Assembly: GCA_001938485.1 (NCBI GenBank)
Contig: MQRK01236046.1
Location: forward strand, 15,318 to 79,317
Length of the DNA stretch: 64,000 nt
DNA from: Girardia tigrina
Taxonomy: Eukaryota
Direction of reading: 5' to 3'
Part shown: piece by piece, positions 1-31,275 of the stretch
Layout: each line of letters begins with the position of its first letter
Position numbering within the stretch: the stretch's first letter is position 1
Translations under genes and position numbers: made by a program
Notes under the pieces: generated by a model
The model's input: the letters and a program-made list of their open reading frames with translations, nothing else
The model's database searches: none
What the model was told of the DNA's origin: nothing

Positions 1-155
1 CGGTAGCATACGGTTCAATTTCACATTTAAACCCGCATATATCGCATGCTCATTTAAATTTTTTTTGACCGTTACAAGTAACTTCGAGAAAATTTAATTA
101 AGTTAACTTGAATTTTTTTTAATGTAAAATTGTACCTTAGGACCTAACAAATCAT

Positions 156-880
156 TCAGTGAAAATTTGAAGTTTCTATGTGGTCTAAATGCTGAGATAT
201 AGGCAAAAGTAAATGGCCCATTCTTGACAAGATGAAATACAGTGAAGGTATATGAAAAGTGCTTAAAAATTGACCTCCGGATTTAGGGAATAATCCCATT
301 TCACAAAAAGTGTTAGTGGCCGAAAGATCTCTTACTCCTAACAGACCTTTTTTGTTGATATTTAGGGCTCTAAATTCTAAATTTAAATCGTGGCCAACAA
401 TTATTTTTCCAAAGCATAATTGTTGTACCTTCTCAATTATTTCATATTCATCCTTCTTTCCTCTCATCATATTCTCGGTTATCCCGTGGTACTTTTCACC
501 TGTGCAAATCATTTTGTGCCTAGGGGTTGTGAATTCATTAAGTAATATATCCCCTTTTCTATTCAAAATGGTAATGGACACTAGTCCCCTAGTCTTATCT
601 AGTAAATCTCCCGTAAATTCCGCGTCCATAAATATTAATTTTTCCTTTATTTCATCCGTAGATAAAGGTTTACGAATGAAACTCCTACGAAATTTGAAAC
701 CCTTTACTAACTGAATCCGTTGTGAATTGGTACTGATTTGGGATTGATTGATTGCTTGTGTTTCTAAAAAAAAGGAAAAAAATTATTACCCCCTAACCTT
801 CACCTAAACAGGTTACTATGATAAGATAAAAGATTTTGAAAGAAAAAAAAATACTTACTAGAAAAATTTTTGAAGTTCAT
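156..880 (-). CDS. DEDDh 3'-5' exonuclease (REX4/RNase T-like), two exons (880-859, 763-156), C-terminus truncated or degenerate; cargo of a Gypsy-like element
   Basis: Motifs MDAEFTG (DxE), KYHGIT, IIVGHDL, VRDLS. Upstream ATG exon ends in GTAAGT, the acceptor is TTTTTAG, and splicing keeps the frame. The final HxxxxD motif was not found. Confidence 0.75.
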
Positions 881-1147
881 AATTTTGAAATATATATTTT
901 ATGTTTATAATTTGTTTGATTTTATAGTATTGATAAAGTTTTTTTTAACCAATAAGAAAGTTTTTTTTTAAAAGATTACTAACAAGCATCGCTCGCTCTA
1001 ATTTGTTGATACTCAGTCACACACATAAATCACAAAAATGTTATATCATTATAAGATTACAAGGGTATTAATGACATAAAAGAAAAATGATAAAAATAAA
1101 TAGATAAATAAAGTGAATATATACAAAGCATGCAAACTATCTCACAG

Positions 1148-3230
1148 TTACACCAGGGTTGATTGCGTTACTCGAACATCCCTTTGATTGAGTTGATAGG
1201 ACCGTCGTAGGTAGTTCGAAAACACTCGGAGCCAATGCCCACTTATGATCAGAAACATGATTATAGATATGATAACCATTCCAAAAATGAAGTAAGCAGT
1301 TTGTACAGAACTCCATCGGAAAAATATTTGCTTTCTATACACCTTTGATAAATTTGAAGCATTATTAAAGTGATTGGAAATATCTGAATCAGAAACGTTA
1401 AAATGAAGATTATCATTTTTATGAATTAAATTTAAATATTGATGACTATCATTAATATAGGTACGCTCCTCAATATATAAGGTCCTTACGATTTGATTGT
1501 CAACAAAAATAGTATGCCAAATAACTTTTGTTTTGTTTAGTTTTTGATATTAAATTTTTAAGGAATAATCTTCAGCTTCTTCAAGGTTTTTGATTTCTAC
1601 AATTGACGTAAAATAGTCAAGTTTTACCGTAATTACGGATCCCATAAATGAACAAAGTACAATGACCCTTTCATATAGATTTGATTTACGTACTAATATT
1701 ATTGAATTTTCATGAACTTTGATATCAATTCTATTGGTTTCGTTAATAATCGTTAGACAGAAATCTTCACTAAAAATAATTTCCCAACTACGTTTTGAGT
1801 ATTCTAACTTGTTATTTAAATATGCTTCAAAATATTGCAATTTTACTACATAGCTATTCTTAATTTTTAAATTATCGATGACCAAAAAAGGTTTTTCACT
1901 TGTCAAGAATTCTGATCTTTTTAGAGATTCAATTTCATATTCTACTCTGACTCGTACTAACTTAACAGGTTTCCAACGAATCATAATACTTAACCATGTG
2001 GGTTCAATTAACACCTTTTCAAGATTTGATTTTGTCCATACTCTCATTTTAAATTATCTGGATTATTGTCGATTTCAAATTGATTCTCCCAATATTTGAT
2101 CTGAAAATTATAGTAATGATTAAAGTATAAATTTCTTACCATTCCTATAGACAAAGTGTTGTTTACTATTAATGATCTTTTGACATCATCAATCGAATAA
2201 TATAATTTGAAGGTTTCAGAAGTGTGACATCTACATTGAAAAATTATTAAATTATAAGTTGAATAAATTTTTAATTGATTTAAAGTTTTAAGTTCAGTCT
2301 TTGCTGTATGATAATGTATAGATTGAGCTCCAGAGATAGGTAGAGAAAAATACAAAATCCAGGGTATGATCGATAAATAATGACATTTTTTACTTTTCTT
2401 TACCGAGTCTTTAATTTCTGTGCTCGTAGCATTTGCTTTGTTATTTCTTGCTTGCAGATTATAATGAGGTTCATCGACTTGTAATACTTTTTTGCATCTG
2501 TTAGCATGAACTACAATGATTTCCGCGTTTTTGTTATTTGCTGGTTGTAATCTAACGTTAGTTGGAGTTGTTCCACAAACTCGATAAGGTCCTTTGNNNN
2601 NNNNNNNNNNNNNNNNNNNNNNNNNNNNNNNNNNNNNNNNNNNNNNNNNNNNNACTAAATCTCCAATTTTGAAATCGTGATCCTTGGCTTTTTTATCGTA
2701 CGCAGATTTATATTCCTCTTGATTATGTTTGATTTTTAACCCTGCTCTTTCCCAAGCTAATTGCATTCTTTCCTTCATCAAGGTTTTATAATCAGCAACA
2801 TCAATAGTATTAGAGTCTACTTGTTCATAATTTAAATCGATGGGCATATTAGAGTTACGTAAATGCTTAAGATAAAACGGTGTTTCATTTGTAGCCGGAT
2901 GAACTGCATTATTGTATGCAAAGATACATGAACTGATATGTACATCCCAATTTGTTTGTCCATTATTTACGTACGAGGAAATCAAGTTTAATAGTGTACC
3001 ATTGAATCTTTCAACAAGACCATCCGTTTGCGGGTGATACGGAGATGTATTCAATTTCATTATTCCGAAATAATCAGTTACCTGTCTAAAAATTCACTCA
3101 TAAAATTTGAACCTTGATCTGTTAATAATTTTTTCGGAATATCATAACGAAATATTATTTCCTCTACGAATACTTTCGCTACTGTTTCAGTTTTTTGATT
3201 TGGTATCGGGACTGCTACGGCCCATTTTTC
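1148..3230 (-). pseudogene. Ty3/Gypsy integrase (rve) continuing into a membrane glycoprotein-like extension (hydrophobic leader, FN3-like repeats, C-terminal TM)
   Basis: TDQGSNF..., TSPYHPQTDGLVERFNGTL and GPY motifs. Then LSIIPWILYFSLPISGA, FN3-like W..Y..L..Y patterns and the TM segment AYFIFGMVIISIIMFLII. Two single-base frameshifts (~2047, ~1551) join the three track ORFs. Confidence 0.8.
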
Positions 3231-3439
3231 TGGTTATTGGTATTTTTAATCATTAATACTTCTATATATTGCGATTAATTAAATATTTCTCAAATAGTCT
3301 TTGATGTTGTCTTTGTTTTTATTTTCTTATTATTTATATTTTATTTTCTTATCAAATATTATTACGAACGTTTTGACATTATAATGGATTATTTGAGCTC
3401 GAATTGTTTTCATGAATCGGCAATAGTTGTGGCACACAA

Positions 3440-3560: not shown

Positions 3561-3683
3561 GTAAATAGGACGTGTAAATATGTACATGTGTTTATAATTG
3601 ATTAAAACTAACAAATTGGCATTTAATTCTATTCTACTAAATGTTATTGTCTATTTAATTTAATGTAAGAAATTTTAAGTAAT

Positions 3684-6600
3684 TGTCACGACCCATTTGT
3701 TCATAACAATTTTAAGTGCTCAGAGGCCCCAGTGGCTATTAAGGGTCAGCCACAACCCAATTTCAATTTATTATTTAACTACAACTCTCTACAATACTTA
3801 TTCTCTCTACTATATATTATAGGGTCGGACGCCTCTTCTCGCTCGACATCTGCCTGACAGTGCCGAGTGTGAAGGGCCTGCGGGTTCTGATAGAGATGGG
3901 ATGGGCTATGAGCCCCCCACCTAGCGGAGTGTCGCTCGGGGATGATGTATGCTCTATTATTGTGTAATATGAGACTTACGGTACTGTTGTGTGTAATATA
4001 AAACTTGTTGCACTGTTATGTGTTTATGTTTCGGAAACTTGAGGCGATGTTATGCCTGTAGGTTGACTTGCTGCACTGTAGTGAATGAATGTGATCTTAT
4101 GGCACTGTTATGTTCGCGTATATACTCGAAGCGTCTGTTTGTTTTGTTTTAATGACCTATGATATCGTTGTTCGCCTGTTTGTAGCAGAATCTATGTTTA
4201 TTATAGCTCACTAGTGTGATGATGAACTCCTCTGGTTCCCTTACTTCTAGTATGACATGATAATTATGGCTTTTCTATCGTTATAGAATACATGATCAAC
4301 AGCAGCTTTTTTCGAGAACATTTTTATCTCATTATCTAACACTACATCGTTCTTTAACACTATCATTGTATTACTATTTCGTTATTATTACTTAGTGTAA
4401 TTCGACAGTCGTGATTTTATGGGGTTTGTCGTTATTTCTCACTTCCAATTTTTAATGCTTATATCGCTAAATACCAGAACTAAATAATTCCTATGCGCGA
4501 TTCCTCAAAGACAATTATTAATATTTGTAAAACAATTTTATCTTATTATTAATATCTACATACGTATCTTTAACTATTAATATTTGTAAAGTAATTTTAC
4601 ACCTCCCGCAAAGAGAATCGTTGATATTCATAAAATAATTTTCGTCCGCTAACTTCAATAGAATTATTATTAATAGAGTAAAATAAATTTATTCATAAAA
4701 TAATTTTCGTCCGATAACTTCAATAAAATTATTACCCATAAAATTCAATAACAAAATAAATTATATACAGATTTGATTTTAGACTCGTTTGTTTTAATGG
4801 TCTAAATTGCATCTCGACCTTTGGGTGTTTTTTTCGATTCCCAAAAGAAATTTTCAATCTTAATCGCCTCAACTACATTTTTCCATGGAATAACCACACA
4901 GTCAATAAAATATAGAGGTAACGAAATTACAGTTTTTAATTGCTAAAATTATTTACCATAAATAATCGGTATTCTTCCACAAAATTCATAATTCGCTTTG
5001 ATTTTATTTTTCTCATAGTCGACAAAATTAAACACCACTCTCGCTTACCGTCAAGATAAATATTTCACCGGTATAATGAATAACTAGCAATCGGGCATGA
5101 TTAATAAATAATCAATCTCAATTAGCAACTAATAGCAGAGTGTAACTAATAATTAATAACCAGGTGAGACTAATAACGCTCTCAGATACTACGTTCCTTA
5201 CTATAGTAATCACTAATATAAAAATAATAATAACAAGACGGTGACTAAAATCGTAAGTTAAGGTATATTTAAAAGAAAGGGTTTTGTCTTAGATACTCGG
5301 TCGTCCGACACGGGCGAGCTCGCGGCTCTGCGTCTTCGATTGGTCATGGATATCTCCGAGAAACAATTTGAGGGGCATTGAAGTTACATCTACGATGATC
5401 GGGTCAGCATAATTCCCGACGCTCTTCCATCGTGCGTTAGAGCGCAAATTCTCTCGGGGCATAGTTGAAGGCGACGACGGCGGGACGACGGATTACCTGA
5501 CTCGGAAATTAAGTATCTACTAATCATAAACTATAATAAACACGAAAGTAAAGTCAAAGTAATAGAATAAAACGAAAAGTGAAACTGTAGATTATTATTC
5601 AATAAAAAAAGCTAATGACCACAATCAAACATAATAAATGAAAATTTACAGTTGAATTCGTAAGCTGGGAGCCGGTCGAATGTCTCGGTCGTCTGGTACT
5701 CTTCTTCGTCGGCGCGTCACTCGGATGAAACGTCGTCGTACACTGTCGGGTGGTTATGGCGGGATAATCGTGGATTCCGCTGTCCTTGTGTAACCTCGGT
5801 TCGTGTCCCACCTTTTCTTCTCGTACGTGTTCGGTATCCTTGCCTTCCGTTGATCGTTGGTATTTCGTATCGCGTACGCCTCTGGAACTCGTTGTCGTCG
5901 AAGATAGTGCAAATGGATCTTGATAAATTCGTGAGCAAAATTGCTATGTAAAAGTTGTTGTGGTTGTTGTTGAAAGTTGTAATTTTTTTGTGATTCTCGG
6001 CAGTGTGACTGTTATATTTATAACAGCGTTATTGATTTTGTCAGGGTGCGATTTCCTCGTGGCCGCTTCTGATTGGCCAACATCGACGGTTTTGTTTTTC
6101 GATTTATCGGGGCAATTTGTTGCCGTACAGTATGTCCAAATATGGACAATGACTGCTTTGTCACATGGACAAGGCCTACCTTGTCACCGATGACTGTTCA
6201 TCGCGTGATGCTGTTTTTTCTTTGTGGGCCTGACTCATGGTAAGTTTTGTTTGCTATTCTTTGTCTTACTTAATTGGCCTTTGTTCTTTTTTAATTAATT
6301 TATATTTCTTTACAGGGGTATAACTTTTCAGGGGAACGCGTCAGAATTTTGCGGGTGACCTTCAGGGGTTCCTCATCTTCGGGGCTACAAGTGGAGGGTC
6401 TGTTGGCCTCATAATGTTGACGGGTCGCCTTGGAGGTGACTTTATTAATTTTTTGGGGTCTATTTTTCAATTAATTCTTTCTTTTCCAGGGTTTGGACTC
6501 TTCTCGGATCTTTGGACGTCGTCGGCCGTCTTTGGGATCGCCTCAAGCTGTCGTCAGAACTTTATTAGCTTTTTCTTTTTGGAATTTGAATAAATGTATT

Positions 6601-8081: not shown

Positions 8082-8129
8082 ACTGTATATATATATATAT
8101 ATACACATTGTAAGGTAAAATCTATATAA

Positions 8130-8389
8130 TAGGGATAAAAACAAGACGACGCGTTTCGAGATAATAAAAATCCCATCATCAGGTCACAAAATGTACCAAG
8201 CAGGTATACTATATGGAAACTTGCCGAAAATAAATAAATTTTATCCAATAAATTATTATCCAATAATTTATTGGATAAAATTTATTTATTTTCGGCAAGT
8301 TTCCATATAGTGTACCTGCTTGGTACATTTTGTGACCTGATGATGGGATTTTTATTATCTCGAAACGCGTCGTCTTGTTTTTATCCCTA
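8130..8389. repeat. 128-bp near-perfect inverted repeat (Penelope-like terminal repeat) embedded in (TA)n
   Basis: Arms 8130-8257 and 8262-8389, 4-nt spacer ATCC, one mismatch. Confidence 0.95.
8334..8374 (+). ncRNA. Minimal type I hammerhead ribozyme (Penelope-type); mirror copy at 8145-8185 (-)
   Basis: GAC-CTGATGA-TGGGAT(TTTTATT)ATCTC-GAAAC-GC-GTC^GTC: full catalytic core, stem II, 3-bp stem I and a palindromic ACGCGT stem III. Confidence 0.85.
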
Positions 8390-8506
8390 ATATATATATN
8401 NNNNNNNNNNNNNNNNNNNNNNNNNNNNNNNNNNNNNNNNNNNNNNNNNATATATATATATAATGTGTGATCGCCGGGAGTCGAATCCGGATCGAATGCT
8501 TGGAAG

Positions 8507-11500
8507 TGTCACGACCCTTTCGAGTTAAAACATTTTGGAAAGCTCAAGAGCCTCCAGTGGTTATTAAGGGTCAACCACAACCCAATGTTACTTTGAAAGT
8601 ATTGATTTACTTTATTTTATCTGTGAGCGGGTCGGACGCCTCTTCTTGCCCGATATCTGGCTAGCAGTGCCGAGCGCGAAGAGCCTTCGGGTTCAAGTAA
8701 AGATAGGACGGGTGAAGGCTCCCCCCCCGCCTAACTCAGTATCAATCGGGGTATGCTGTGTGATACGTTTGTGTCGATTATGTCTGTGTCGGCTTCGTAC
8801 TGTAATGAAACTTGTGGCATTTATGACGCGCTTAAGTGCTGTGCTAAACTTACGGCGTTGTATCTGTGGACGTACTTGAAGTACAGTCAGGTCCGATTTC
8901 TCTGAAATTACGAGAATATTATATCGCTGTATGTTGCATATTAGTTCATCGTTTTATTTCACCCCCATCTCTCTACAGTTTATATCATGCCGTGGCATTT
9001 TATTAGTATTCAGTATTTATTTGCCTTTCACCAGGCTCTCTCATTAATTAATATGTGCTTCAGTTTTTGCACGAGCGTTTGTTATATATTTACCGTCATT
9101 CAGTTAAAATTGAATTTATATAGTCAGTATTTATTCTCGTCTCCTAGAAGTGAATTCGCGACTAACAGATTTTATCGGTGAAAGATCCTCAATTAAACTT
9201 ACAATTTCCTTTGATAATGATGTCCGAACTTAGTCAGGAATTCCTTTGGAAAAACTTAAAAATTTTATTCATAAAAATTTCATAAATTCATAAAAATTTT
9301 ATTAATACCTCGTAAAGTTTTCCTAAAATCCCATTATATCATAAAATTCATTATAAAATTCTTGATCAACATTTCGTAGAATTGTTATAAAATTCCAAAT
9401 ATTAGCTGCTCAAAACTTCCGTTAAAATTCGCAGTTAGGTTAGAATTGGATTTAAGTTAAACTAAATTAAAATTAAACTCGCAATCAAAACTGAAAATCA
9501 ATTAAATTAAAACTGGAAATTATAAGGATTCATCATAAAATCATGGAATTTCTCCAAAAAAAAATTTTTTTACTGATAAAGGTTCATTGATTAAAGATTC
9601 ACTAATTTTTTACTAAAGATTTTGTAAAAGATCTCGATTAATTTATTCACTAGGATAATATATATTTATTTCGTAACGAAGGGTTTTTCGTTTGTTTTAA
9701 TAATCTAAAGTTCGTCCTACAAACCACTCTGCGAATTAGATTTTCCTTTCGAATATCATACACATTCATTACGATATTTTCGCTGATGATGCGGACGACG
9801 ACCGGGGAACTAATTCTTAACTCCAGCTCCGAAGCATCGGGTGTTCGATCTTTTATCTGTTTTTAGTCAAACTGACGAAGATCAATTCCAATCAGGTATA
9901 TGCTTACTGGCTGTCTAAATCCAAACTAAATCACTGTCGTTCAAATAATGTCAGTTAATTTATTAGAATTCGATTAATTAAAACCACTTAAATCAAATAA
10001 TAGTTAGTTAAATAAATTTATTATAATTTAACAAGGATTAATCGAATACATTTATTGATATAAATAAAACTGAATCAACTATGTTTCCATAAATTAATCG
10101 AGTTTACATTTATTTCTTCGCTCACATCAACACGTTGTGTGTACGTTGGAACGCCTTCGGGTTCTCTACCAGTACCGAGGATGGCCCGATTGGTAACACA
10201 GTTTCTGAGGGGATGATGCTAACTCTAACTGAAGCTTATATTTTAGACTACATTATCTAGATAAGACAAAGAGTGTCTCGAGGAAATAAACGTCGGTCTG
10301 CCCGCGTGCCCCTCGCATGCTACGAGCAGCCTGCGTCATCTCCAAAAGATTCTTTGTCTCTACGTAAACTCAAATTATGCGTAAATTTATTTCATACTCA
10401 CGTTCAATTATATTCGTATTTTATTATGTTGGGTTCTATGATATTTGAATATATTTGTTATCATTATCTGTATGGATGTGCTGAACTGCGACAATGATTC
10501 TACAACTTGTTAATTTGTTTATTACTAAAATTATTGCTCAGGAAAATTGAAAAAACGGCGCACAACGTTTCGAACATTTCAAATGTTTATCATCACGATC
10601 GTTTGAAAATTTGTGACTTTATTTGTGTCATCATTCGAGATTCAATATTATTTTGTCTGCTTGCAAATTAGTTTAAATTGTTCATAAAACAATTGCATCG
10701 GAAACTTAAACTAGCCCCGATGTTGCATTAATCAACGTTATATTAGGTCCATATAATTAAACTCTCATGCCACGAATCGACAAAACGAAATCAGAAAAGT
10801 TTACGTAAATAAATAACTAATAACTTCGGAAAACATGAAATGATAAAACCGTATTTGATTCACTTCTTTCATTACTCTCACGTGATCTACATCTGTGACT
10901 ATCTGACAACTTGTGATCACAACTCTCGCTTTAGTACTCGTTGCAGTTCTCACACACCTTTTACGATCTTAAATAACCTTTCTTGGCCGTGTTCTCGCAA
11001 TCACACGTAATAGTCCTAAAGAGAACCGTTGTTCGTTCTTTAGTGACCCTGTATAGAACATTAGACTCTCTCATAATCGTGTGGTATTAATTCACATTTC
11101 ACAAATCTAGCTCAAGAAATTTAACTTTTGATTCAGTCACTTATCTCGTAGAAAATTTACTCCTTTCAAAACTTTAATTTAATATAAAATTTTACCAATT
11201 AGACTCATTAGTAAAGGAATATTTTTAAAGAATATTTATAAAATATTACGAATTAATGTTCGAGATGATCAGTTACACTCATTAAGAAAGAAAAATCATT
11301 ACAAAATATTTACAAAAATTACGAATTAATGTTCGAGATGATTCATTAAACAAAAAAAATAAAAATTTCTAATAAGTTACAAAATTTAATTAAGCTCGTT
11401 AAATTCGTGTTAAATAAAATTCTAATTTCCAAATTAATTCAGTAATATATAAAATAATAACCAAATTAACAACTACTGAAAAAAAATAATAATTGGATTC

Positions 11501-13643
11501 AATCAGTTATTATATCAATGATCTTCCCATTAATCTCAGTTATTTACATACTTCCAACCAACACCATTATTTACAAGGCTTGCATACAACTCAGTTACGC
11601 CACGAAGTCCAAGGACCATTCTCCCTGATCCTTTGGACGCGGAGACGAATCGCCGTCGTATTGTTGTCTACCAGGGTCGATAACTTCGATGCCCATGACA
11701 GTTCGAATCGTTCTCGACAATTTGATTTTCGCAGTTGCAATGCAAACAAGATCGATATTCAAATGAAATATTTATATAATATAACTTTCAAAGAGTTAAT
11801 AAGATCATATCACTCGCGAATTATTTATTAATTATAATCCAAATTATACTCCGAAATTAAAACATGAATGAAATAAAACAGAACAACAAAATTTTGATAT
11901 CAAAAATCAATAATAAAAAATAATTAAGACAAGAATAATAATGAATTAACAAATGATAAATGAACCATACCTTCTTATCAATCGACTATTCGCATTATAC
12001 TGTAGCGTAAATATAAAATTAACTGTCAAAGTAAATCGTAGGATCAAATGTCGTTAAATAAACTGACACAATTGTGTCGAGAAAAATGTAATTGTACTAG
12101 TAAAATTGTCGCTGTAAAAATTGCGTGGTAAAAGCTGTTGTAAAAATTGTTCGTAAAAACTGGCGAAATCGTGCACACTCCTACGGGTATTTATACCCTC
12201 CGGATGTGCATAGCTCTCTCGACATCCTGTATACAATCTGGTTTCGAGACAGGGTGAGGGGGAATCAATGTTGTTTAAAAATTGCACATCCATGATTCAT
12301 GGGTATAACAGGATTAAAGGTTTGTGCGTTTTCGCCGGAGAAAGATGCGCTGCGGCATTCTAACCAGTTGAAGGTAATTAGATAATAATGTTTATCTTAG
12401 ATGCGACTACTGATTATTCCATATGTTATGATTACAGGGTGGAGAGGTAACCGTCGCTTTTTCTACGACATCCTCGATTCGCAGATACCTCGAACGTTGC
12501 CAACATCTGTTGTAGCATACCCGACTGCGATTGTTCGTGAATAACGGATGTCTGTTTCGTTTACTGCAGACCTACCTCGAAGATAAACAAATGTCGAATT
12601 TTTTGCGATTCATACTGAATCATCTCGGTAAGATTTTTAATTAACTAAGAATTCTTAATTAATTTCTATATGTTTCTCAGGATTTTTTAAAGGGTTTCTC
12701 CGCCTGCTGGAATTAAAATGGAGGACACGGAACATCGTCCGCAGAGCCCTTCTCCTGCCTTGTGCTCCAGTGCGTTCAAAACCTATTTAACACTACTGAG
12801 GATAGTCTAGTTTGACTATCCTCACAAATCCTCAATAAGGTTCTTATATGTGCAGGATGTCGGGTATGGGGAAAGGTTCTCGGCGGGTTATGGAATTTGT
12901 CGTATCGTAACAGATGATTTGATTAAAAAATAAAACCATCTTCTCTCATAGGAGATACTTTAGGTTTTATCAAAAAAATATAAGAAAATATGAAATATAA
13001 ATCAATAGTAATTTTACTTTTGTAGCTTCTTTCCTTTGTAAATTTGTAAAGAGTAATTTTTTTTGGGCAAACTAAACAAAATTTACTGCTGTTTATATAG
13101 TAGTTTTCATCAGCCTTGACAATTGATCAAATAAAACAAACACTAAGATATTTTTAAATTTCAATTCCAAATTTTGTTAAACTAAATATTATTTTGTCTG
13201 AAATTAATAATTTTACCAAAAGAATTATCCTAAATTTTTTCTACATAAAAATTTTGTTACAAATGTTCATAGGTATTTTTCGAAACCCTAACAATTCTCT
13301 ACTACGGCGACGCTGTGCGTGCGGGTATATTTATGTTTTTTCTACCCCGGTTATACGATGTGTGTCTGTCATCGGTGTGTACAATTATTGATTTTTCTGG
13401 TGAGTTATTTATGTCATATTAGACTATTTTAAGTTATGCAACTGCAGGAACCCCCAACAGGACAACCCACCATGAACAAGTGCTATCGATGTTTGGATTT
13501 TTGATAAGCCTTAAGTTTTGTTAATTTTCTAATATTTTTTGTTAATTTATTATTATTAATAATAATAATAATTATTGATAACAGAGTGGGTAGCGCAGTG
13601 GTGTACCTGCGGCAGATTAGTTATGGTGGCGACTCTCTTGACA
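8507..13643 (+). mobile_element. Putative ~5.1 kb solo LTR (unit B) of a giant Gypsy-like element
   Basis: Starts TGTCACGACCC like unit A. Candidate end is TGACA at 13643, with GAAG on both flanks (possible 4-bp TSD). The right boundary is tentative. Confidence 0.4.
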
Positions 13644-16349: not shown

Positions 16350-19300
16350 ATGGTGAAAGATATTATGATTCTCACATTACAAAATCAAATGAACAATCAA
16401 TACGAATTATTCCGCATTAAAAAAGGTAAAAAAAATCGATAATAATCATTTTAATTGATTATTTTCGTAAAGATTCGTATTTACGACTCCAAATCGGTCA
16501 TAGTTTGTTGGGAAAATCGTTGCGGATATTCACCAATTATCCGATGACGTCGAATATCTTCTTGAGACACGAATATCACGAGCTCGAGATCGTCAATCCG
16601 ACTTTATCCGGCAACAAACGCGACTGTTTCGACAATTACGCCGAATTTCGAGCCACTCTATCCGGGGCGTTCCAGTTCTACTTCACCGAAAACGGATCCG
16701 CGTCGATTTCCGACAAAATCGGCGAAGGATATTTCATAATCGATCCGAGATTCACGTTCCATTTGAGCGAGAAGTTCAAGGACGTCCATTTCGAGCTGGA
16801 CGGGATCGTGCTGCAGACCTATCTGGCCAAGAACCTGGGCCCGTTCGCCGAGTGGAACAAGCGCATCCAGCCGGCGCTCGACGGCAACTACAACATGATC
16901 CACTTCACCCCGCTCCAGGAACTGGGCTACTCGCGCTCGGCGTATTCGCTCCGCGACCAGCTGCGCGTCAACCCGAGCTTCTCGACGGCCGCCAACCAAG
17001 TCTCGTGGTCGATGATCGAGAAATTCGTCGACAACCTCTACCAGAACCACCAGTGCCTGTCCATGACCGATCTCGTCTACAACCACTCGTCCAACGACTC
17101 GCCGTGGATCCACGAGCATCCCGAGTGCGCCTACAATGTCGTCAATTCGCCCCATCTTCGACCGGCCTATCTCATCGATCGGATCGTTTGGAATCTCACG
17201 CTCGACGTCGGCTCCAATCGATACGAGAAGCGCTCTCTCACCAGCATCGTGTCCAGTGGCCGCGACATCGAAATTATCCGCGAGATTCTCTGGGAGAACA
17301 TCAACGATCTCCGGGTGCACGAGTTCTACTTGGCTCATCTCGACGACGAGGTCGACTCGTTCCGCAAGTTTCTCCAGGAGATCGATCAGGACATCGTCGA
17401 CGACGCCGTGTTGCGACCGGGCGCTCTCGTTCTCGATCACCGCAAGTATGAGCGGCTCCGGTCGGGGATCGACCACGCCATCGTCGGCTATCATTTCTAT
17501 CGGGAGTTCCGCGACATCGACGCCGCTTGTATCAAGTACCGCCAGACGCTCGAGCGACTCAATGCGGCCATGTATCGCGAGGTGCNNNNNNNNNNNNNGA
17601 TCGCCAATGTCGGCTACCGGTTCATCGACGAGCACGGCTTGCGACTGGGCCGGGTGACGCCGGACACGCCGCTCATGTGGAACTACTTCTACCATCCGTA
17701 CAGTGACGTGGTGACGCTGCGCGACTGCGAGATCAGGATGGCCGGCGAGCCCAGACTCATGGCCTTCAACGGCTGGGTCATGAACGACAACCCGCTGAGG
17801 AATTTCGCGGAAGAAGGAGCCAACGTTTACCTGCGACGGGAATTGATCGTGTGGGGCGACTCGGTCAAGCTGCGCTACGGCAACAAGCCCGACGACTGCC
17901 CGTATCTCTGGGACCATATGTTCAAGTATACCGAGCTCACGGCCAAGATCTTTCACGCGATCCGACTCGACAACTGCCACGGCACGCCGATTCACGTCGC
18001 CCAGGCGATGCTGGACCGCGCGCGAGCCGTCCGCCCCGACCTCTACATCGTCGCCGAGCTGTTCACCGGGAGCGAGGGCGTCGACAATGTCTTCGTCAAC
18101 AAACTCGGCATCAATTCTCTGATCCGAGAGGCGCAGAGCGCGTGGAATTGCAGCGAGCAGGGCCGCCTCGTCCATCGGTTCGGCGGATTCCCGGTCGGCG
18201 CCTTCGTCCAACAGATCCCGCGCCAGTTGTATCCGAGCACGGCGCACGCCCTCTTCTACGACATGACCCACGACAACGAGTCCCCGGTCTGCAAGCGGTC
18301 CCCGTTCGATCTGCTGCCGACGGCCGCGATCGTCGGCATGGCGTGCTGCGCCGTGGGAAGCACTCGCGGCTACGACGAGATCGTGCCTCACTACATCGAC
18401 GTGGTGAACGAAGAACGGTTCTATTCTCGGTGGGGAGAAACGATCACCATGGACACGGGAATCGTGCGCGCTAAGAGTCTCATCAACAAGCTCCACAAGC
18501 GGCTGGCGGTTGACAACTTCAACCAGGTGTACGTGGACCAACTGGACGGCGACATCGTGTCCATCACGCGCCTCAGCCCGACCAAGCACCGGTCGGTCGT
18601 GGTCGTGGCGCACTCCGCGTTCTCGTACCCGGGACACGAGCCCGGCCACCGGCCCGTGCGCGACATCGGCCTCTCGGGAAAGGTGATCAACATCCTGTTC
18701 GAAACGCGCACGACACGGGACGTGNNNNNNNNNNNNNNNNNNNNNNNNNNNNNNNNNNNNNNNNNNNNNNNNNNNNNNNNNNNNNNNNNNNNNNNNNNNN
18801 NNNNNNNNNNNNNNNNNNNNNNNNNNNNNNNNNNNNNNNNNNNNNNNNNNNNNNNNNNNNNNNNNNNNNNNNNNNNNNNNNNNNNNNNNNNNNNNNNNNN
18901 NNNNNNNNNNNNNNNNNNNNNNNNNNNNNNNNNNNNNNNNNNNNNNNNNNNNNNNNNNNNNNNNNNNNNNNNNNNNNNNNNNNNNNNNNNNNNNNNNNNN
19001 NNNNNNNNNNNNNNNNNNNNNNNNNNNNNNNNNNNNNNNNNNNNNNNNNNNNNNNNNNNNNNNNNNNNNNNNNNNNNNNNNNNNNNNNNNNNNNNNNNNN
19101 NNNNNNNNNNNNNNNNNNNNNNNNNNNNNNNNNNNNNNNNNNNNNNNNNNNNNNNNNNNNNNNNNNNNNNNNNNNNNNNNNNNNNNNNNNNNNNNNNNNN
19201 NNNNNNNNNNNNNNNNNNNNNNNNNNNNNNNNNNNNNNNNNNNNNNNNNNNNNNNNNNNNNNNNNNNNNNNNNNNNNNNNNNNNNNNNNNNNNNNNNNNN

Positions 19301-22300
19301 NNNNNNNNNNNNNNNNNNNNNNNNNNNNNNNNNNNNNNNNNNNNNNNNNNNNNNNNNNNNNNNNNNNNNNNNNNNNNNNNNNNNNNNNNNNNNNNNNNNN
19401 NNNNNNNNNNNNNNNNNNNNNNNNNNNNNNNNNNNNNNNNNNNNNNNNNNNNNNNNNNNNNNNNNNNNNNNNNNNNNNNNNNNNNNNNNNNNNNNNNNNN
19501 NNNNNNNNNNNNNNNNNNNNNNNNNNNNNNNNNNNNNNNNNNNNNNGGTTCAACGCGATGTTCGAGCCGATCAAGAGCCTGCCGCGATATCTCGTGCCGT
19601 CCATGTTCGAGATCCTCATATCGAGCGCCCACAAGTTGGCCGTGGAAGAGGTATTGATTTCGTGATTGTGGGTTTGTTTGTCTTTCGGGATCGAATCGAT
19701 TAGCAAACGTGGTGATTGTCGAGTGGAAATAATCGATTGAACAAATATTTGTTTGCTGTTATTTCTCATTGACAATCGAATCAATTGATTTACGATTTTC
19801 AATATTGATTGTAATTGCTTCAGTGCTACTATCAATTGGGCGACAGTATCGTTTTCGGGTCATCTCTCATGAAGAATCTGTCGCTGGGGTCCATCATGCT
19901 CTGCTCTGTCGTCAGGAACTGCAGATTGCCGCCGTTGGCCATCGAGACCAATCAGGAAGTATGCACCTTGTCGGCCGGGTTCTCGCACTTCGCCGAGGGC
20001 ATCTGGAGGAACTGGGGCCGAGACACGTTCATTTCTCTGAGAGGCCTGACACTGCTCACGAATCGGTTCGAGGTACGCTCTGTTCTGTTTGATTCATCAC
20101 TCATTTCCACTTATATTTATCAAATAATCGATTATTATCATTGATTTTATGTTTAAAATTCGAAAACCAATTGAAATTGTTTATTGATTTCGACGGATTG
20201 CCCGCCATCTTCAGGACATCTGTTTTTATTGACAGAAAAGAAATGCACTTATATAATACCGACAATGATTGTGTAATCAATACGCCATCAATAAAGTTGT
20301 CGAGAGTGCATTTTGATCGTTAATTTTAGGATCCAAAGATCTTATATAAATAACGCTTCACACGAGTCACTCTCTCCCGATAATTCTTGAATTGAGTGCA
20401 CAGAATTTAAAAGTTATTGATGTTTATGTGCCATTTCCTCGCGACTGTGTTCCTGGATTGTCTTACAGAGATGACGCGCAGTCTCTCCAATGTGTGTGAC
20501 GTGGAAGTGGGATCCGGACACAGTCCCAATGGCGTTTAAATTCATCGTATCATCTGCTTTATATTGCTGGACACAGTAAACATTGTAAGGGGGACACAAG
20601 CATCCATGACTTTATAAGCCTCCCGACTGTCACAAGAACACATAATACTCAGCATTGGCGCACAGGGCAGTGAATCAAGGACTCTGTATCGGGTAGAAAC
20701 CATTTTGATCCTCTCACATGGCTTCGGATGCAAGAGTTCGAAATTTCAATGCACGGGCGCGCTTCGGCTCCCCTATGACAAATGACCACTCATGTTCCTT
20801 CGTTCCGTGATTCTGGAGACTTCTGGCTGTATAAACGCACTTAGTGCAACGGGGAAATGGGCCGTGAAACACTCCCTTATCACACCGACAACTCAGCACC
20901 ACATGAGGACTCTCCTCATCTGTTTATGTTCTTTCTACTACTCGGATGTTCGTAGTACCATTACCTTGGATTCGATGATCGATCATTAAATGCTCTGTGT
21001 CGTCGGAGCCGTGGCCAAACGCAAATTCGTAATAAGTCTTGTGAGTTCGTTCTGCTCAGCAAATTCTTTAAAGCAAGAAAGGAATGTGCGAGTTTAAGCA
21101 TTTTCGGATATTCTTTCTCGTGCTCGACTATCTCTTTCAGTCGCTCGGAGATGGTTCCTTTGATCAGGTGTTTAAATTCCTTATCCTTGTCGAGAAGTCC
21201 TCTTTTAGACTCTCCCTGTGTTCTGCCCAATCTACCCGATCATTAAACGAGCAATGCACTCTCTCATCATTTGCTTTTTACGGCCGCTGATTCTGTGATT
21301 TTCTGAGACGATCTCCGAGTTAAGAATCTCCAACCAATTGTTTGTTCGAACAAATTAATGAATGATTTACTCTCAAAACGACCTATTGTAATAATTGAAA
21401 AACATCGGCTTGATCGAACAAGTTATGAACACAAATCAATAAAACTATTTTAAATCGGTTCAAGAAAATCTATTTGAAAGTAATTGGAATCGAAAATGAC
21501 GTATTTATCAGCCACAATTCTATCCTCTTGCCTCTTCTTGGATGTTGTAATCAGATGCGTGCGTAGAACAATATTTCTGGGGGGATGTACTATTACGTAA
21601 CTCATATTTTCTTTTTCAAGTTTTATTTTCAAAGTTAAAAAATTTAATTTATATTCTCATCGAAATACGACTAATGCAGTTAATATCACTTGGTTATTGA
21701 TCATTACTGGCTTCAATTTAGTTTCATGATTTGAGAAAGAAAAAATTTCTATGCTCTGTAAAACTTATACGTAATTAAGATCGTAATTTAAATTTTTCGG
21801 ACGGGGGATTTTCTTAAAATCTTTGGAAAGTTTCACATTTTAAATTCAAGAATTTTAAATTATTCTTATTACCGTTTTTTTCCGTGTATGAGATCCCCCT
21901 TATTTTTGAGTGTACATTGTGTGGAAAAAGTTCAAAAAAGTACCTTAATTCATTCCTGAAAGTAAATTGAAATCTTTTGTATCGGAGAAATATTTCAAAT
22001 ATTAACTAATTGTTGAAAATTCACATTAAATGTTCATTGAATTTTGACAAAATGGGGTCTTATACACAGAAAAATACGGTAATATTCTGTTAGCAAACTT
22101 AGGGCTAATAAAGATCGTAATTCAAAATTTTTTCTGAGGGGATTTGTCCTGAACCACACTGAGTTGCCCAGCTTGTCCTACACAAAATCTAAATTACCCT
22201 GTTTTATGGTTATATGGTGGCACCTTAGTAGATTTTAAAAGACAAAATTTTACTTCGAAAGCACCGTAGTAAACAGTGGAACCTTAGTTAAAAGTGGCAC

Positions 22301-25300
22301 ATTAGTAAAACGAAACAAAAATTTAAAAAAATTTCCTTCTTTTTCAATTATATTTTTTTATCATCATAATCTTCATCTTCGCTACCAAAATTATTTTCAT
22401 CCAACAAAGTATCAATGAGCTGCTCATCTATATCATCTACCACATCTTCAGATTCTTCATCGCTTTCCTCAATAACTACATCTTCAACGTCTTCGTGTTC
22501 ATTCGGATAAAAAATGATTGTGGTCTTCTTGAAGCCATTAAGATGGCACCTAAGAAGAACAAACACAAAATTTCAGAGTTCAAAAAAATTTAATAAGGTG
22601 GCACCTTATAACCATAAAACATGGTACATAAATTTTAAGCGGTTGCTGAACACCAAGTAATTGACAAATTAAAAATGAAAATTTGAGAGCGTTCTTAGGG
22701 AAGATAGAACAATAATACTGCGTAGTAATTTCAGTTTTACCATTCTATTATGGTATTATTATCAGCGCATTTCTTTCATCGCTAATTACAAAGGAAAGTC
22801 TTATTGTTGACGATATTGACCATAATTACTGTAAAGACATTAATCACATTCTCGAAACACTCATTAAACAGTTGTTATTTCATATATACAATAAAAAAAA
22901 TAAGCGTAACGATCTGATTATGAACAAAAATGTATTTTAATTTTCTTTATTGATCGTCACTGGAAAGTTCCAACCCAAACGACAATTCTAAATTTATTTC
23001 TCTAAACATTTTTCACTTCATTCAAAAGTTGTTATTGATCGTCAACATCACACAGGACGCAAGAATAATTATCCTGATGTACGCTGCAACCGTTCGACAC
23101 GGACTGATTCCCAATTTATTAGCTGACGGTCTTGTAGCTCGATATAACGCCCGGGACGCCACATGGTTCTGGTTGAATTCTATCAAGCAATATGAGTTAT
23201 CGCAAGCGAAACTCGGGGAAAAAAGTGTCAGTATTCTAAAAATGCCTGTAGCGCGATTGTTTCCCACTGACGGTTCCGATGGCACGAAAATCAAAGAACA
23301 ACCGTTGTATGAAGTGATCCAAGAAGTTCTCCAAAGACACGCAGACGAAATAAAATTCCGAGAGCGCAACGCAGGCCATCAGATCGATGAGCACATGAGG
23401 GATGAGGGATTCAATGTCGTCGCTGGTATTAGAAACGCCACGAAATTTCCTTATGGAGGAAACGAGTTCAACTGCGGTACGTGGATGGACAAAATGGGCA
23501 GCAGTTACAAGGCCGGTAACAAGGGGTACCCCGCCACCCCGAGAGATGGAAGTGCCGTGGAAATAGTTGGACTGTGCGCGTCGGTCTTGGAATGGTTGAT
23601 TGAGTGAGTATTGTTTTCATTGCTATTTATTATTGTTATTATTGTTATTGATTGTGTGCGCATTAGTTAAATTTGAGATTATTTATTGATTATTTCAGTT
23701 TGTATAAACAATTATTTTTTTTAATTTATTAAATTATTTCTCTCATTTTTGTTTATGTTATGTAATTTATGTTTTATTACGATCGATTATGTCACACCGA
23801 TATCAATTGAAAGTAATGTTTTTCCTCTATCGATTTCCAATGGGAAAAATTAAAATAAACATTATTTTCATTTATGTGAAATGTGCGAATGCCGCTCGAT
23901 ATTGATTTTCAATTTTCAGTGCAACGAGCAATAAACAGTACCCGTATAGCGGGGTCAATTTTTTCGGTAACTCGCTGACTTGGAACGATTGGTACAGCGA
24001 CGTGAAAAAGTATTTCGATGATATGTTTTTCATTCCAATCGACACGACAGATGAACACTTGGTTTACAATCGGGGCATCTATCGGGACACTGTCAATTCA
24101 GTACTCGGGTACACTGACACACTGTTCAAACCGAATTTCGTTGTCGCTATGGCATTGGTGGGTCTTTGTTCTCTCTTAGATTTCTTTTTCTTATTCTTTT
24201 CCTTTCCAATATGACTTTTTAAATCGATTTTTTTCTGTCTTTTCCAAATAGGCCCCTGCTATATTCGTTGTGGAACACGCATGGCACGCTTTGGGTCTCG
24301 TTGAGAAAGAATTGCTCGGTCCTCTCGGGATGCGTACTTTAAGCCCGAGAGACTGGGCTTATCGAGGCTATTACGATAACAGCAATGATTCGACTGACAA
24401 ATCCGTTGCCGCCGGATTCAATTATCACCAGGGCCCAGAATGGGTCTGGTTGACGGGATTTTATTTGCGCGCCAAATTGATCTTTTGTCAGAAAATATAC
24501 GCAATCGATACGGATAAATACAAGACTGTCATCCCGGAAACCATAACCCATGTTCAGATGGTTCTTGGACGTCTGGATCATCACATCAAACACTCTAAAT
24601 GGCGATCTCTGCCAGAACTGACCAATAGAGACGGACAGGTGAAAATTATTCGATTACACATCAACAGTAGTGGCCGAGAGTCTTTATCCCCATTCCTTAA
24701 AATGTGTGAAAAATCAATTTTCATTAACTATTTTTTATTTATCTTTGTTTTATCACATTGATTGCACGAGTGGTATTGATTTAAATATTGCTCAACTGTT
24801 TCTATGACATGCAAGTTACAATTGTCAACTCAATGCCACGCTAAATCGATCGAAATATCTTCTATTTTTTAGGTAATTTCAATTGAGAAGAAGGACATAC
24901 TCATAAAGCAATTGCTGAACGTTATGGTATTCATTTCAAGTCTGTGTCTTATATTATTGAGAGATGCTGAAACGGGTTCTGTTCACGACCGACATCGTTC
25001 TGGCCGTCCTCGACAATCGACTCCAAGGGAGGACAAGCTCATCAGAAGTCTCAAATAAGGACATTCCCGTGTGATCCATGGGTTCACAACTGCAGCTCTT
25101 CTGATCAATTTGTCATCCGCTGGAGTCGATTTCCTTGAGAATATTGGACACAGACTTGAAATGAATGCGATCGTTTTTGAGTACGTCCTTCTTCTCTCAA
25201 GATAAGCACCCGGACACGCTTCTCGATTGAAATTGGTGTAGAGCTACTCATTACCTAAAAAATAGAGGATAATTTGATCGATTTAGCAAGGCATTGAGTT

Positions 25301-25930: not shown

Positions 25931-27796
25931 TAGAGAGCGGAATAATTACGGTAAAAAATGTCAAATTTCCGGTATAATTTCCGGTAAAAATAAGGTAAAA
26001 TATAATGAAATGAAAAATACCAACATAAAACATTTATTTGTTGTAATACAAAATTAACAACTTTTCGAGATTATCTGGGGTTAAATTGGTTCTTCTTTCA
26101 GTGAACAAAATTTTTAAAAGTGAAAAAGATCTTTCAGCTGAAGCAGAAACAAGTGGAGAACATATTCAAATAATTTTTCTTCAATCCCACATGTAACTGC
26201 ATTATATGTTAAAAAGAAATTTAAATCTGGATTCTTTTTTATCAATGCACTCATTTTCTTTACCAGTACTACATCGNNNNNNNNNNNNNNNNNNNNNNNN
26301 NNNNNNNNNNNNNNNNNNNNNNNNNNNNNNNNNNNNNNNNNNNNNNNNNNNNNNNNNNNNNNNNNNNNNNNNATAAATTGACAGTTGTTCACAAATCGTA
26401 GTTGATTGATCAATGTTTCATTTTCAAAAACAATACTTAGTTGGCAATAAATGGTTGGGTTTGAATTGAAAAAATTCAAAAGTATTGCATAGTTTNNNNN
26501 NNNNNNNNNNNNNNNNNNNNNNNNNNNNNNNNNNNNNNNNNNNNNAACAATACTTAGTTGGCAATAAATGGTTGGGTTTGAATTGAAAAAATTCAAAAGT
26601 ATTGCATAGTTTTTAAATATATACGATGCACATTCAATCCATGTACCCCACCTTGTCAAAACAGTGAATTTTGGCAGCTTTATTTGTGTATTTTTGATAG
26701 ATTCCTCCTGATTATTTTTAATAAAAATTCTTTTAAAATCTGCCATAAAAGAATCTAATTTTGTACAATTTTGTCGTATTGTTTCACATAAGCGATGTAA
26801 CATGTGGCATAAACAAGTCACCACATGCTTCAATTTTGGAAAAAGCAACTTTAACATTTTTCCAGCTTTAACTGCATATGGAGCAGCATCTGATACCAGC
26901 AACCTCAATAGAGAATAATTAATAGTCCCACCATATAATTGAGTTAACGTGCCAATTATTCTTTGGTTGATGACTTCTGCATTTGTTTTGTCAATATCTA
27001 CAACAGATATTAATTTAGGCGATAATAGGTATTCACCACATTGCCNNNNNNNNNNNNNNNNNNNNNNNNNNNNNNNNNNNNNNNNNNNNNNNNNNNNNNN
27101 NNNNNNNNNNNNNNNNNNNNNNNNNNNNNNNNNNNNNNNNNNNNNNNNNNNNNNNNNNNNNNNNNNTAAAATAAATTTCCTGTAAAATGATTCGCTTTTG
27201 ACAAAAATTTTACAATACTTTTCCAAAAAAAATTTCATTTTTGGATTACCGATTTTTTTAAATGGTATGTTGGCTGCACAAAAAGCTTCAACAATGTCTT
27301 TATCAAATTCAGAGTATTTGTTGCTTTTTTCATGTGAAAAAACAAGTTCAGATTGCTTCTTACCGTCATTAATTTTCTTGGCAGATATATGTGTTAATGA
27401 CCTCAAATGCTTCGTCAGTGGTGCAACTCCTTCTTTTGGCAAATATTTAAATCCTTTCGTGCATATTTGACAAAATACTTTATCATTTCTTATTTGAAAA
27501 TCACTATTCGCACGTATTAAATCAGTTAGTGCTTTATATTTAGATACATTTACCATTATTATAAAATTTTGAATTATTACTGTTTCAAAAAGTGTTTTAA
27601 AACAAATTTTTAAAATAAATTATGTTACAATATTAGTAATATTATATTACAATGTCAATATTTTCAANNNNNNNNNNAAAAATGTCGTAATTACTGGTTT
27701 ATTTATCAAGATTAGAATTTACGGCTTTTTCATTTTCAGTCGCAAAAATACGGGTTTTTTTACGGTTACGGTTTACCGTAATTATTCCGCTCTCTA
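25931..27796 (-). mobile_element. hAT-superfamily DNA transposon; transposase ORF 26114-27556 (CGGBP1/DUF659-like, BED-type finger)
   Basis: Perfect 25-bp TIR TAGAGAGCGGAATAATTACGGTAAA and perfect 8-bp TSD GTTATTAT (25923-25930, 27797-27804). Motifs CQIC...H....H, SDAAPY, CLCHMLH, TRWGTW. Confidence 0.93.
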
Positions 27797-29614: not shown

Positions 29615-31275
29615 TTATACAATAGCCCCCTCCCCTTCAGAAGTGGAACGGACACTAGTGTGTATTAATTTTAGGTTTCTTTGATTTTTAAGCTTATGGT
29701 TAACATTAGAAAAAATGTCCGCAGTATTATTTTCGTAAACTTCTGCTTTATACGGACCAGTAAAACGGTTGCCAAAAGTTGTTGGATTAATGATTTTCTC
29801 GTAAGCCACTGCCTCCTTAGTCTATAATTTTTGTTTTGGTGATAGATCTAAATCGAATAATTTCACGAAGGCTTTCTTTCCACGCAACCTTTCTAACGGA
29901 GAAGTACCTGAAGTTGAATTAGGTTTAAGTCTCAGAGACAAAAGAGCCTCCGGAAGAATGTCTAACCAGTTTGAGTCATTTCCTTTTAAACGTATTGTTT
30001 GTTTGAGATATCTATTAAAAAATCTCGACTTTACCATTTGAACTTGGATTATAAGGAGTGGTTCTGATTTTAACAATGCCGAAAGACGTACATAACTTTT
30101 TGAATAGATCTGATTCAAACTACCGTCCTTGATCCGATATTATTTTTTTTGGGGGTCTGTATCTACAAATACAGTTCTCCTTGATCGCTTTGATTACTGA
30201 CTGTGAGGAAATATCTGACACAGGAATAGCTTCAAACCATGATGAAAAACGATCAATTATGGTGACTATGTATTTTATTTCATGATTATGTGGGAGCGGG
30301 CCGATTATATCTACGTGAATAATATAGAATATACCTCCTTCATCAAAATGCACTTTTCTGATTTTTATTCTACTTATAGATTTATTTAAATTGCAAGTAA
30401 TGCAAGAATTTACAAAACTCTTCACATCCTCACGCATTTTGTACCAACATGCCTGATCGCATAATAACTGGTAAGTACAGCGGAATCCGTAATGACAAAA
30501 ATTGTGTATTGAAGCAATACAAGTTTGTCTCAGGTTTTTAGGGATCAAAGGACGAGAAATGCCGTACAACGAGATTTCATACCAAATTTCTTTAACTTCT
30601 TTCAATTTGATTGATAGATAACTAGCACATCCTTTTACCACTTCTAACTGTTTACCAAGAAGGTCACTAGTAGTAAAATTGGAACAGAAATTCATACTTC
30701 CCACAGGATTACGAGACAAAAAATCAGCGGCTACATTAGAACTCCAGACACGTATTTGAAACAGCAATGGACTTGTGAGATGTAACAGGTTTGTGTCATC
30801 TGTCGAGGAGTGGGATCTTTTTAAGATAGTACTTGAAGAAGAGTTTTGTGATCTGTGACAATTGTGAAATTACGGTCTTCTAAGAAATGTCGAAAGTGTT
30901 TGATAGATTTGTAGACCGCTAAAAGTTCTCTATCAAAAGTAGAATATCTTCGTTCAGTATCTTTTAATTTCGAAGAATAAAAAGCGATAGGAAAGACTAC
31001 GTCGTTTAATTTTTGTTCCAAAACACTACCGATGGCATCGGAGGAAGCGTCAGTGGTTAAATATAATTCCGAACCTTTTTTTTAAGCAAGTTAGATTGGT
31101 AATATTGTTTATAGTCTTTTTTATCTCTATGAAAGCTGTTTCTAATTCGTCTTTCCAAGTAATTTTATCAAGTTTCTTTTTTCCTTTTATCGTTTCCGTA
31201 AAAGCAGACAATAATAGTGAACAGTCTTTTATAAATTGGTGGTAGAAATTGATCATACCACAAATTCGACAGATC
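29615..31275 (-). mobile_element. Degenerate Ty3/Gypsy pol fragment (RT end, RNase H, integrase) ending at a polypurine tract
   Basis: GMINFY, TDASS, RYSTFDRELLA, TDHK, H..GH...C..C, DIIGPLP, SDQGR, GPY motifs. PPT GAAGGGGAGGGGG followed by TGT. Confidence 0.9.

Follow-up and report, generated by a model that had tools for sequence, protein, structure and literature searches.

The window analysed here is a stretch of 64,000 nt from Girardia tigrina (GCA_001938485.1, contig MQRK01236046.1, positions 15,318-79,317 of the forward strand) and, judged by its sequence, its segment 3228-1148 on the minus strand is the broken 3' remnant of the pol region of a Ty3/gypsy element. We found that in sister copies the pol frame is fused in frame to a module predicted to hold three fibronectin type III (FN3) domains. 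The module very probably represents a type I FN3 glycoprotein that is released from the pol polyprotein. Our preferred reading, to which we assign a probability of roughly 0.55, is that this protein is freed by signal peptidase and serves as an accessory adhesion or attachment protein beside a separate gB-type fusogen, a role that we infer from its anatomy.

On the minus strand of the window, the integrase core is followed by an assembly gap, the GPY motif, a linker, a leader, ~285 beta-rich codons, an Asn/Ser-rich stalk, a hydrophobic segment and a 26-residue tail. The individual features are as follows.

2654..3228, minus strand: integrase core remnant (rve_3 E 5.5e-05; 92-95% identity to sister copies)
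2597..2653, no strand: assembly gap of N within the integrase C-terminal region
2401..2595, minus strand: GPY motif (2592-2584) and stop-free linker up to the leader; the window linker has no Met
2326..2400, minus strand: internal signal-peptide-like leader, with a basic patch, a Cys and a hydrophobic core; cleavage is predicted to follow the Ala that ends at 2326
2030..2325, minus strand: N-terminal arm and predicted FN3 domain 1 (predicted homodimer interface), from the model; fn3 E 9.4e-05 in the neighbouring subfamily
1748..2023, minus strand: predicted FN3 domain 2, from the model and fold searches; fn3 E 0.029 in the window
1475..1744, minus strand: predicted FN3 domain 3 (Z 9.4, rmsd 3.0 Å over 84 residues against fibronectin ED-B)
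1310..1471, minus strand: Asn/Ser-rich stalk with N-glycosylation sequons (pLDDT <50 for model residues 287-340)
1229..1297, minus strand: predicted single transmembrane helix (model helix 341-384)
1148..1228, minus strand: short cytoplasmic tail ending in T-L-V (1159-1151), class I PDZ-binding-like, with the stop codon
156..782, minus strand: separate downstream ORF, DnaQ/RNase T-like 3'-5' exonuclease (RNase_T E 8.2e-04 in the window)

The integrase frame (2044-3093, minus strand) has no stop past GPY and runs straight into a KKSKK-Cys-hydrophobic leader, just as an initial annotation made from the window alone had described. Beyond the leader the frame continues for ~390 codons and ends in a transmembrane segment and a short tail, in good agreement with the extension of about 400 aa that was proposed, and all seven of the sequons that were named (NNT, NET, NKT, NDS, NVS, NAS and NLS) are present. 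The same annotation had called two 1-nt frameshifts, at ~2047 and ~1551. These calls were wrong in kind but right in place, because comparison with sister copies reveals a loss of 4 nt near 2054, in FN3 domain 1, relative to 18 of 19 sisters, and an in-frame stop at 1550-1552, in FN3 domain 3, where 18 of 19 have a sense codon. The integrase core has additionally lost 1 nt near 3087 and the copy is 5'-truncated at ~3228, with no upstream pol found in the window or in the adjacent 10 kb, and no LTRs seen for this truncated copy. The exonuclease ORF is damaged as well, by an internal deletion near 697 and an interruption near 265; in a sister copy the RNase_T match reaches E 8.1e-09. This ORF (window 156-782, minus strand; L007:3093-4256) also has a ~220-aa N-terminal region that matches no Pfam family and is conserved across subfamilies, and an acidic C-terminal tail.

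Further features lie elsewhere in the window. A glycogen debranching enzyme gene (16430-24761, plus strand) has very long exons and a 5' part of up to 58% GC against ~30% for the window. Another Gypsy integrase fragment, with H2C2 and rve hits, lies at 30120-30869 (minus strand), and the DNA transposase remnants at 26114-27619 (minus), 37000-38686 (plus) and 41872-42405 (minus) comprise one that looks hAT-like by eye, a DUF4371 match and part of a mariner-type DDE domain. The region of a C2H2 zinc-finger ORF (57332-58006, minus strand) is repeated ~36.6 kb away (20694-21205) at 81-91% identity. Closer to the element, a 270-nt repeat of 68% identity occurs at 3681-3951 and 8504-8762, upstream of the truncation point, a palindrome at 8120-8399 with near-perfect 138-nt arms adjoins an N gap, and an LTR-like remnant at 13061-13293 is 71% identical to the family LTR. 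Beside the window, ~7 kb from the remnant and in the same orientation, there is a second copy that belongs to another subfamily (L021:3167-4857; contig 8566-10256).

The element has hundreds of relatives in this genome, and the arrangement is thus no product of chance. A DNA search with the window extension returned 317 candidates, of which 40 were scored to give 46 matches; a second subfamily, ~40% identical, used as the query returned 1,318 candidates (150 scored), and further subfamilies were reached through the exonuclease ORF. Across 19 mapped contigs the order of parts is gag zinc knuckles, ubiquitin-like domain, env, protease, RT, RNase H, integrase, FN3 module and exonuclease. The PR-RT-RNase H-IN order with a GPY motif is that of Ty3/gypsy elements, the protease being recognised by a DTG motif and a weak Pfam match (E 0.032). 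LTRs were seen in one of the 19 contigs, from a related subfamily, and are 793 nt long, 98% identical, with TG...CA ends and a 4-nt target-site duplication; this LTR-bounded copy spans 16.1 kb and its own frames are broken, as are most copies including that of the window. The full layout is LTR, gag (CCHC), ubiquitin-like domain, leader/gB-type env/TM, PR, RT, RNase H, IN, leader/three FN3/TM, separate exonuclease ORF, LTR. A Ginger-like integrase-only transposon was considered and ruled out, as sister copies have RT, RNase H and LTRs. Copies at L032 (C223569) and L038/L039 (C178441) combine a window-type FN3 module (86-91% identical) with an exonuclease that is only 53-60% identical, a pattern that suggests an exchange of modules among subfamilies immediately downstream of the FN3 stop.

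The fusion of integrase to the FN3 module was examined in 102 distinct GPY-to-leader stretches, 70 of which are open, 17 frameshifted, 7 interrupted by a stop and 8 affected by N. Open frames are overrepresented here, since long ORFs were the reason for including some of the loci; in subsets that were not picked for ORF length, open junctions number 6 of the 13 scored (from the 20 top DNA hits) and 15 of the 24 scored (from the 30 top protein hits). The in-frame lengths are 216, 210, 213 or 165 nt according to subfamily (modal values 216/210/213), and a Met is present in only 8 of the 70 open linkers. One natural frame of 1,317 aa covers RT, RNase H, integrase and fn3, running from RT to the end, and a copy of the window's own subfamily (L169) is open from the integrase core through the tail. 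The arrangement also extends beyond this collection. The protein P0006, which comes from another source and is 22% identical, has a post-GPY tail in frame with a leader, and since it and P0005 have no close copy here (their best relatives in this genome are only ~29% and ~35% identical, respectively) the fusion must exist elsewhere too. At the other joints of the element, an open frame was found in 3 of 7 measurements between env and protease, 3 of 9 between the ubiquitin-like domain and env, 2 of 9 between protease and RT and 0 of 7 between gag and the ubiquitin-like domain; a single polyprotein from gag onward would be the likely arrangement.

The ORF between the ubiquitin-like domain and the protease matches PF24664 (Monjiviricetes_fusion) with E 4.9e-65 and BDV_G with E 3.2e-05. 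It has its own hydrophobic leader and TM segment, and in one copy the leader, env, TM and protease occupy a single 833-aa frame. With a gB-type env between gag and pol, the elements have the organisation of GAG-ENV-POL errantiviruses. Env and FN3 module were found on one contig in 9 of the 19 mapped cases, and a further contig holds a fragment; in the remainder the contig runs out, a gap intervenes or the sequence is disrupted. Given a gB-type fusogen in the same elements, the FN3 protein would therefore be a second, accessory surface protein.

A structure model built from an alignment of 86 natural pieces (a single-sequence fold, at pLDDT 40, was not used) predicts that the extension consists of three FN3 domains. 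The mean pLDDT is 79.9; blocks within residues 11-280 score 82-94, confidence is low in the stalk and the TM helix is modelled confidently. VIA-align delimits the domains at ~14-100, 103-194 and 196-285, with single-domain rmsd of 2.4-3.0 Å and Z of 8.3-9.4, and the predicted model displays the seven-stranded beta-sandwich of ~90 residues that is characteristic of FN3. Among the matches listed by Foldseek, the best was to fibronectin FN10-12 (E 2.3e-10), followed by tandem FN3 fragments of Tie2, CD45 and neogenin; whole-model TM scores were low, probably because the angles between domains differ. Against a library of viral structures, the matches listed were for the most part FN3 and tail proteins of phages (6-14% identity), and in the searches as a whole no fusogen fold or family appeared among the listed matches, the confident parts all reading as FN3. 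The three domains are mutually homologous (hhalign probability 87-94%), and 6 of 30 rows match the fn3 profile directly (best E 7.1e-06). The initial annotation had recognised FN3-like patterns in the extension; the fold is upheld by the model, Foldseek and the per-domain alignment, but the number of domains is revised from two to a predicted three. Word-index protein searches gave no hits, or in another case only P0001 and P0003, with none among longer proteins; a full HMMER scan recovered six unnamed or hypothetical proteins, a PDB sequence search with the alignment gave no hits, and none of 196 pattern matches was confirmed in a metagenome scan with P0006. RGD and WSxWS motifs are absent from the seven rows checked, and no close host homologue of the module emerged in any protein search run.

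The FN3 module is under purifying selection. Among 22 pieces, each of the 68 pairs that allowed a calculation (at least 120 codons, at least 45% identity) has a dN/dS under 1, with a range of 0.11-0.55, and one copy compared with the other 21 gives 0.21-0.78, again always below 1. With kappa set to 3, 14 of 14 pairs lie at 0.14-0.53 in frame, as opposed to 1.03-4.53 in frames +1/+2; the reverse-strand frame (0.28-0.94) is no independent control because it shares third positions. For integrase, the one valid pair has a dN/dS of 0.28, the pair L036 and L102 having been left out as out of frame. Mean identity between subfamilies falls from 49% in domain 1 to 39% in domain 2, 37% in domain 3 and 18% in the stalk, and the leader, three domains, TM and tail motif all persist in subfamilies that are only 30-40% identical. 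A comparison of integrase and FN3 trees with a Mantel test (r 0.70, 17 copies) carries no weight, because the window's subfamily is absent from it and two rows look frameshifted. The initial annotation had tied its reading to three properties, namely that other copies do not stop right after integrase, that the extension adopts a beta-sandwich fold and that it is under purifying selection. Open junctions (70 of 102), the predicted FN3 domains (pLDDT ~90, Foldseek E 2.3e-10) and dN/dS values of 0.14-0.53 bear it out on each.

Signal peptidase favours small residues at positions -3 and -1, and the leader fits this pattern: Ala occupies -1 in 92 of 101 copies, Ser, Cys or Thr occupies -3 in 99 of 101 and Pro occupies -5 in 95 of 101. 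Its hydrophobicity is only moderate, with a KD value of 1.51 against 1.46 for a soluble RT segment, and the most hydrophobic 19-mer in the natural 1,317-aa frame is the TM segment (KD 2.19). The leader is best described as a likely internal signal peptide with predicted cleavage after the conserved Ala. At the other end of the protein, S/T-x-V/I/L at the C-terminus is the class I PDZ-binding pattern. An [ST]-x-[VILM] ending, a putative PDZ-binding-like motif of this class, is present in 57 of 87 distinct ORF ends and in every aligned subfamily that reaches the end, and is kept though the tails are otherwise ~20% identical between subfamilies. The 30 ends without it are by eye mostly early-ended or frameshifted, and three full-length ends also lack it. 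There is a precedent for such a tail in HTLV-1 Env, a retroviral glycoprotein whose tail binds Dlg, according to the part of that study consulted (PMC3395148).

A model of two ectodomains predicts a homodimer formed through a freed N-terminal arm and domain 1. The score is 0.56 compared with 0.22 for the best of three controls, contact agreement between runs is at least 95% and pLDDT at least 85. In benchmarks on microbial proteins, 20 of 30 solved pairs passed the same mark, as against 1 of 23 single chains; for eukaryotic proteins the counts were 17 of 29 solved pairs and 0 of 30 single chains. Among the 7 eukaryotic pairs that lacked an older solved relative, however, only 1 passed, and for this reason the result may reflect memory of FN3 dimers. 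The predicted interface packs the arm (residues 2-13) of one chain on domain 1 of its partner and would need a free N-terminus, which fits with cleavage of the leader, since this would supply one. Conservation is somewhat higher in the interface columns (0.51) than in the remainder of domain 1 (0.40; permutation p 0.034), in a comparison that ignores burial. The prediction lends support to binding but does not separate cis from trans; the dimer may form in cis, or may be a strand-swap artefact.

Taken with the anatomy of the element, these observations favour the accessory adhesion or attachment protein with which we began. The polyprotein would be threaded through the ER membrane twice, first at env and then at the FN3 module, with PR-RT-IN remaining cytosolic between the two passages. 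A signal peptidase cut after the conserved Ala would free the N-terminal arm for dimer formation, and the tail might bind PDZ scaffolds, bringing the FN3 protein to cell junctions or polarised membranes. There it could hold together producer and target membranes, or particle and cell, for fusion driven by the gB-type protein. The initial annotation had similarly spoken of a pol-fused adhesion- or receptor-like cargo that is freed by an internal signal peptide; the pol fusion, leader pattern, predicted FN3 fold and predicted type I layout of that proposal are supported, and the role is the part that is deduced. A fuller version of this scheme, in which a single polyprotein yields a two-glycoprotein entry system of gB-type fusogen and host-like FN3 adhesin, with arms swapping across opposing membranes and the PDZ-like tail at junctions to form a synapse for cell-to-cell transmission, is tentative and in our estimation on the doubtful side.

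The most serious alternative, which we consider somewhat improbable, is that the released FN3 protein modulates the host, either as a decoy or mimic of cytokine receptors or receptor phosphatases or as a superinfection-exclusion factor on the producer cell. Its structural neighbours include interferon and interleukin receptors, CD45, LAR and CD148, and the nearest proteins by language model are FNDC4/5 and cytokine receptors (0.88-0.92, at low recognition and so a lead only). The ectodomain also diverges faster than the rest of the element (~36% identity versus 75-87% for pol/env between two subfamilies), and the Burro relatives are described as having many host-modulating domains in the section consulted (PMC6431247). 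On the other hand, the lack of WSxWS in the rows checked and of a close host homologue in any search speaks against it, selection between close pairs is purifying rather than diversifying, and the predicted self-dimer would require no host ligand.

A less plausible alternative has the FN3 protein translated, like a retroviral env, from a separate spliced subgenomic RNA, which would make its continuity with integrase fortuitous. Errantiviruses normally use spliced env mRNAs, expression at pol level would yield few copies, and a leader left on integrase would presumably need to be trimmed by the protease. Against this, subfamilies retain a stop-free integrase with a linker that is a multiple of three, a start codon is rarely available within that linker, and in the window it is rich in purines, no AG being preceded by more than 9 pyrimidines in 15 nt. 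The contigs of four RNA runs cover most of window 1-3250 and a related 5' region, although contigs cannot show transcription, strand or unsplicedness; they contain no joint into the leader, and one of 951 nt spans the junction, which is weak evidence for the unspliced arrangement.

We regard as highly unlikely a reading in which the FN3 protein acts as the element's envelope (fusion) protein and defines a new env class. This would explain its usual env position together with the leader, sequons and TM helix, and the initial annotation had indeed raised the possibility of a non-canonical envelope, but a gB-type class III fusion glycoprotein is already encoded upstream of the protease in the same copies, and the model comprises three plain predicted FN3 domains, for which the structural matches listed come from adhesion proteins, receptors or phage tails. 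Least probable of all is that part of a captured host gene is carried along passively and does nothing for the element, which would suit the broken state of most copies but is at odds with dN/dS below 1 in every in-frame pair computed and with the retention of leader, domains, TM and tail motif across distant subfamilies.

In layout the elements match a recognised group. Flatworm GAG-ENV-POL errantiviruses (Smed_errantivirus_1-6) carry a gB-type (HSV/gB) env, as described in the parts of the report examined (PMC13524379, eLife 2026). They share with the present elements both the GAG-ENV-POL order and the type of env, the Smed_errantivirus_1 env row being homologous by eye to that of the FN3-bearing elements, and their listed spans of 14.5-18 kb are similar to the 16.1 kb of our LTR-bounded copy. 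They differ in that no post-integrase membrane protein or exonuclease is described in those parts, and 'fibronectin' is absent from the main text. The initial annotation had suggested a comparison with Burro-type elements, and a link to Burro/GYPSM1 of Schmidtea mediterranea is supported by the section examined (PMC6431247), in which gag CCHC knuckles, a ubiquitin-like domain, an env in frame between gag and pol and before the protease, a multidomain polyprotein and accessory ORFs are all shared. Between PR and RT, where Burro has a dUTPase-like domain, our elements hold an insert to which Pfam assigns no family. Burro exceeds 30 kb, however, and our only LTR-bounded copy is much shorter; its MATH, BCL2, BIR and ankyrin domains were not found here in the pieces scanned, where gag is gapped and partly covered, and that section mentions no FN3 or second TM protein (PMC6431247).

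Two further systems supply precedents for parts of the arrangement. The initial annotation had assumed that invertebrate env genes are normally separate ORFs, a premise to which there are published exceptions, at least in the parts of these sources consulted, in Burro (PMC6431247) and in Atlas virus, which makes one Gag-Pol-Env polyprotein (PMC9094657). In Atlas virus and nematode belpaoviruses a membrane glycoprotein likewise occupies the polyprotein C-terminus, but these are BEL/Pao rather than Gypsy elements and it is their class II fusogen that is fused, as far as that account was examined (PMC9094657). Bdelloid rotifer LTR elements have an accessory DEDD-type exonuclease ORF (ORF3) after pol and small non-env TM ORFs; these are separate ORFs, with no FN3 and no combination with a gB-type env in the parts examined (PMC5408684). 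Cellular Tie2, CD45, neogenin/DCC, sDscam and FNDC4/5 resemble the module in tandem-FN3 fold and type I topology, but identity is 7-18%, the tail of the element protein has no enzyme domain and no host orthologue was found.

No FN3-type second surface protein of an LTR element, and no division of labour between a gB-type fusogen and an FN3 adhesin in any LTR retroelement, was found in the literature searched; Grohme 2018, its supplement and Repbase lie outside it and may annotate the module. Descriptions of envelope-bearing retrotransposons usually give them a single surface protein, whereas the FN3 family keeps a second under selection, and this second glycoprotein is found in at least one outside source too. 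This suggests that the glycoproteins of invertebrate endogenous retroviruses may include accessory ones for attachment or host modulation, as in large viruses, and that replication enzymes might be carried between two passages of one polyprotein through the ER membrane. A small soluble ectodomain and a specific tail motif would provide handles on the movement of such elements between cells. The comparison with known systems, as far as sequence allows, thus indicates a known class of element in which a polyprotein-end env and accessory exonuclease ORFs have precedents, and in which the FN3 surface protein is the apparently new part.
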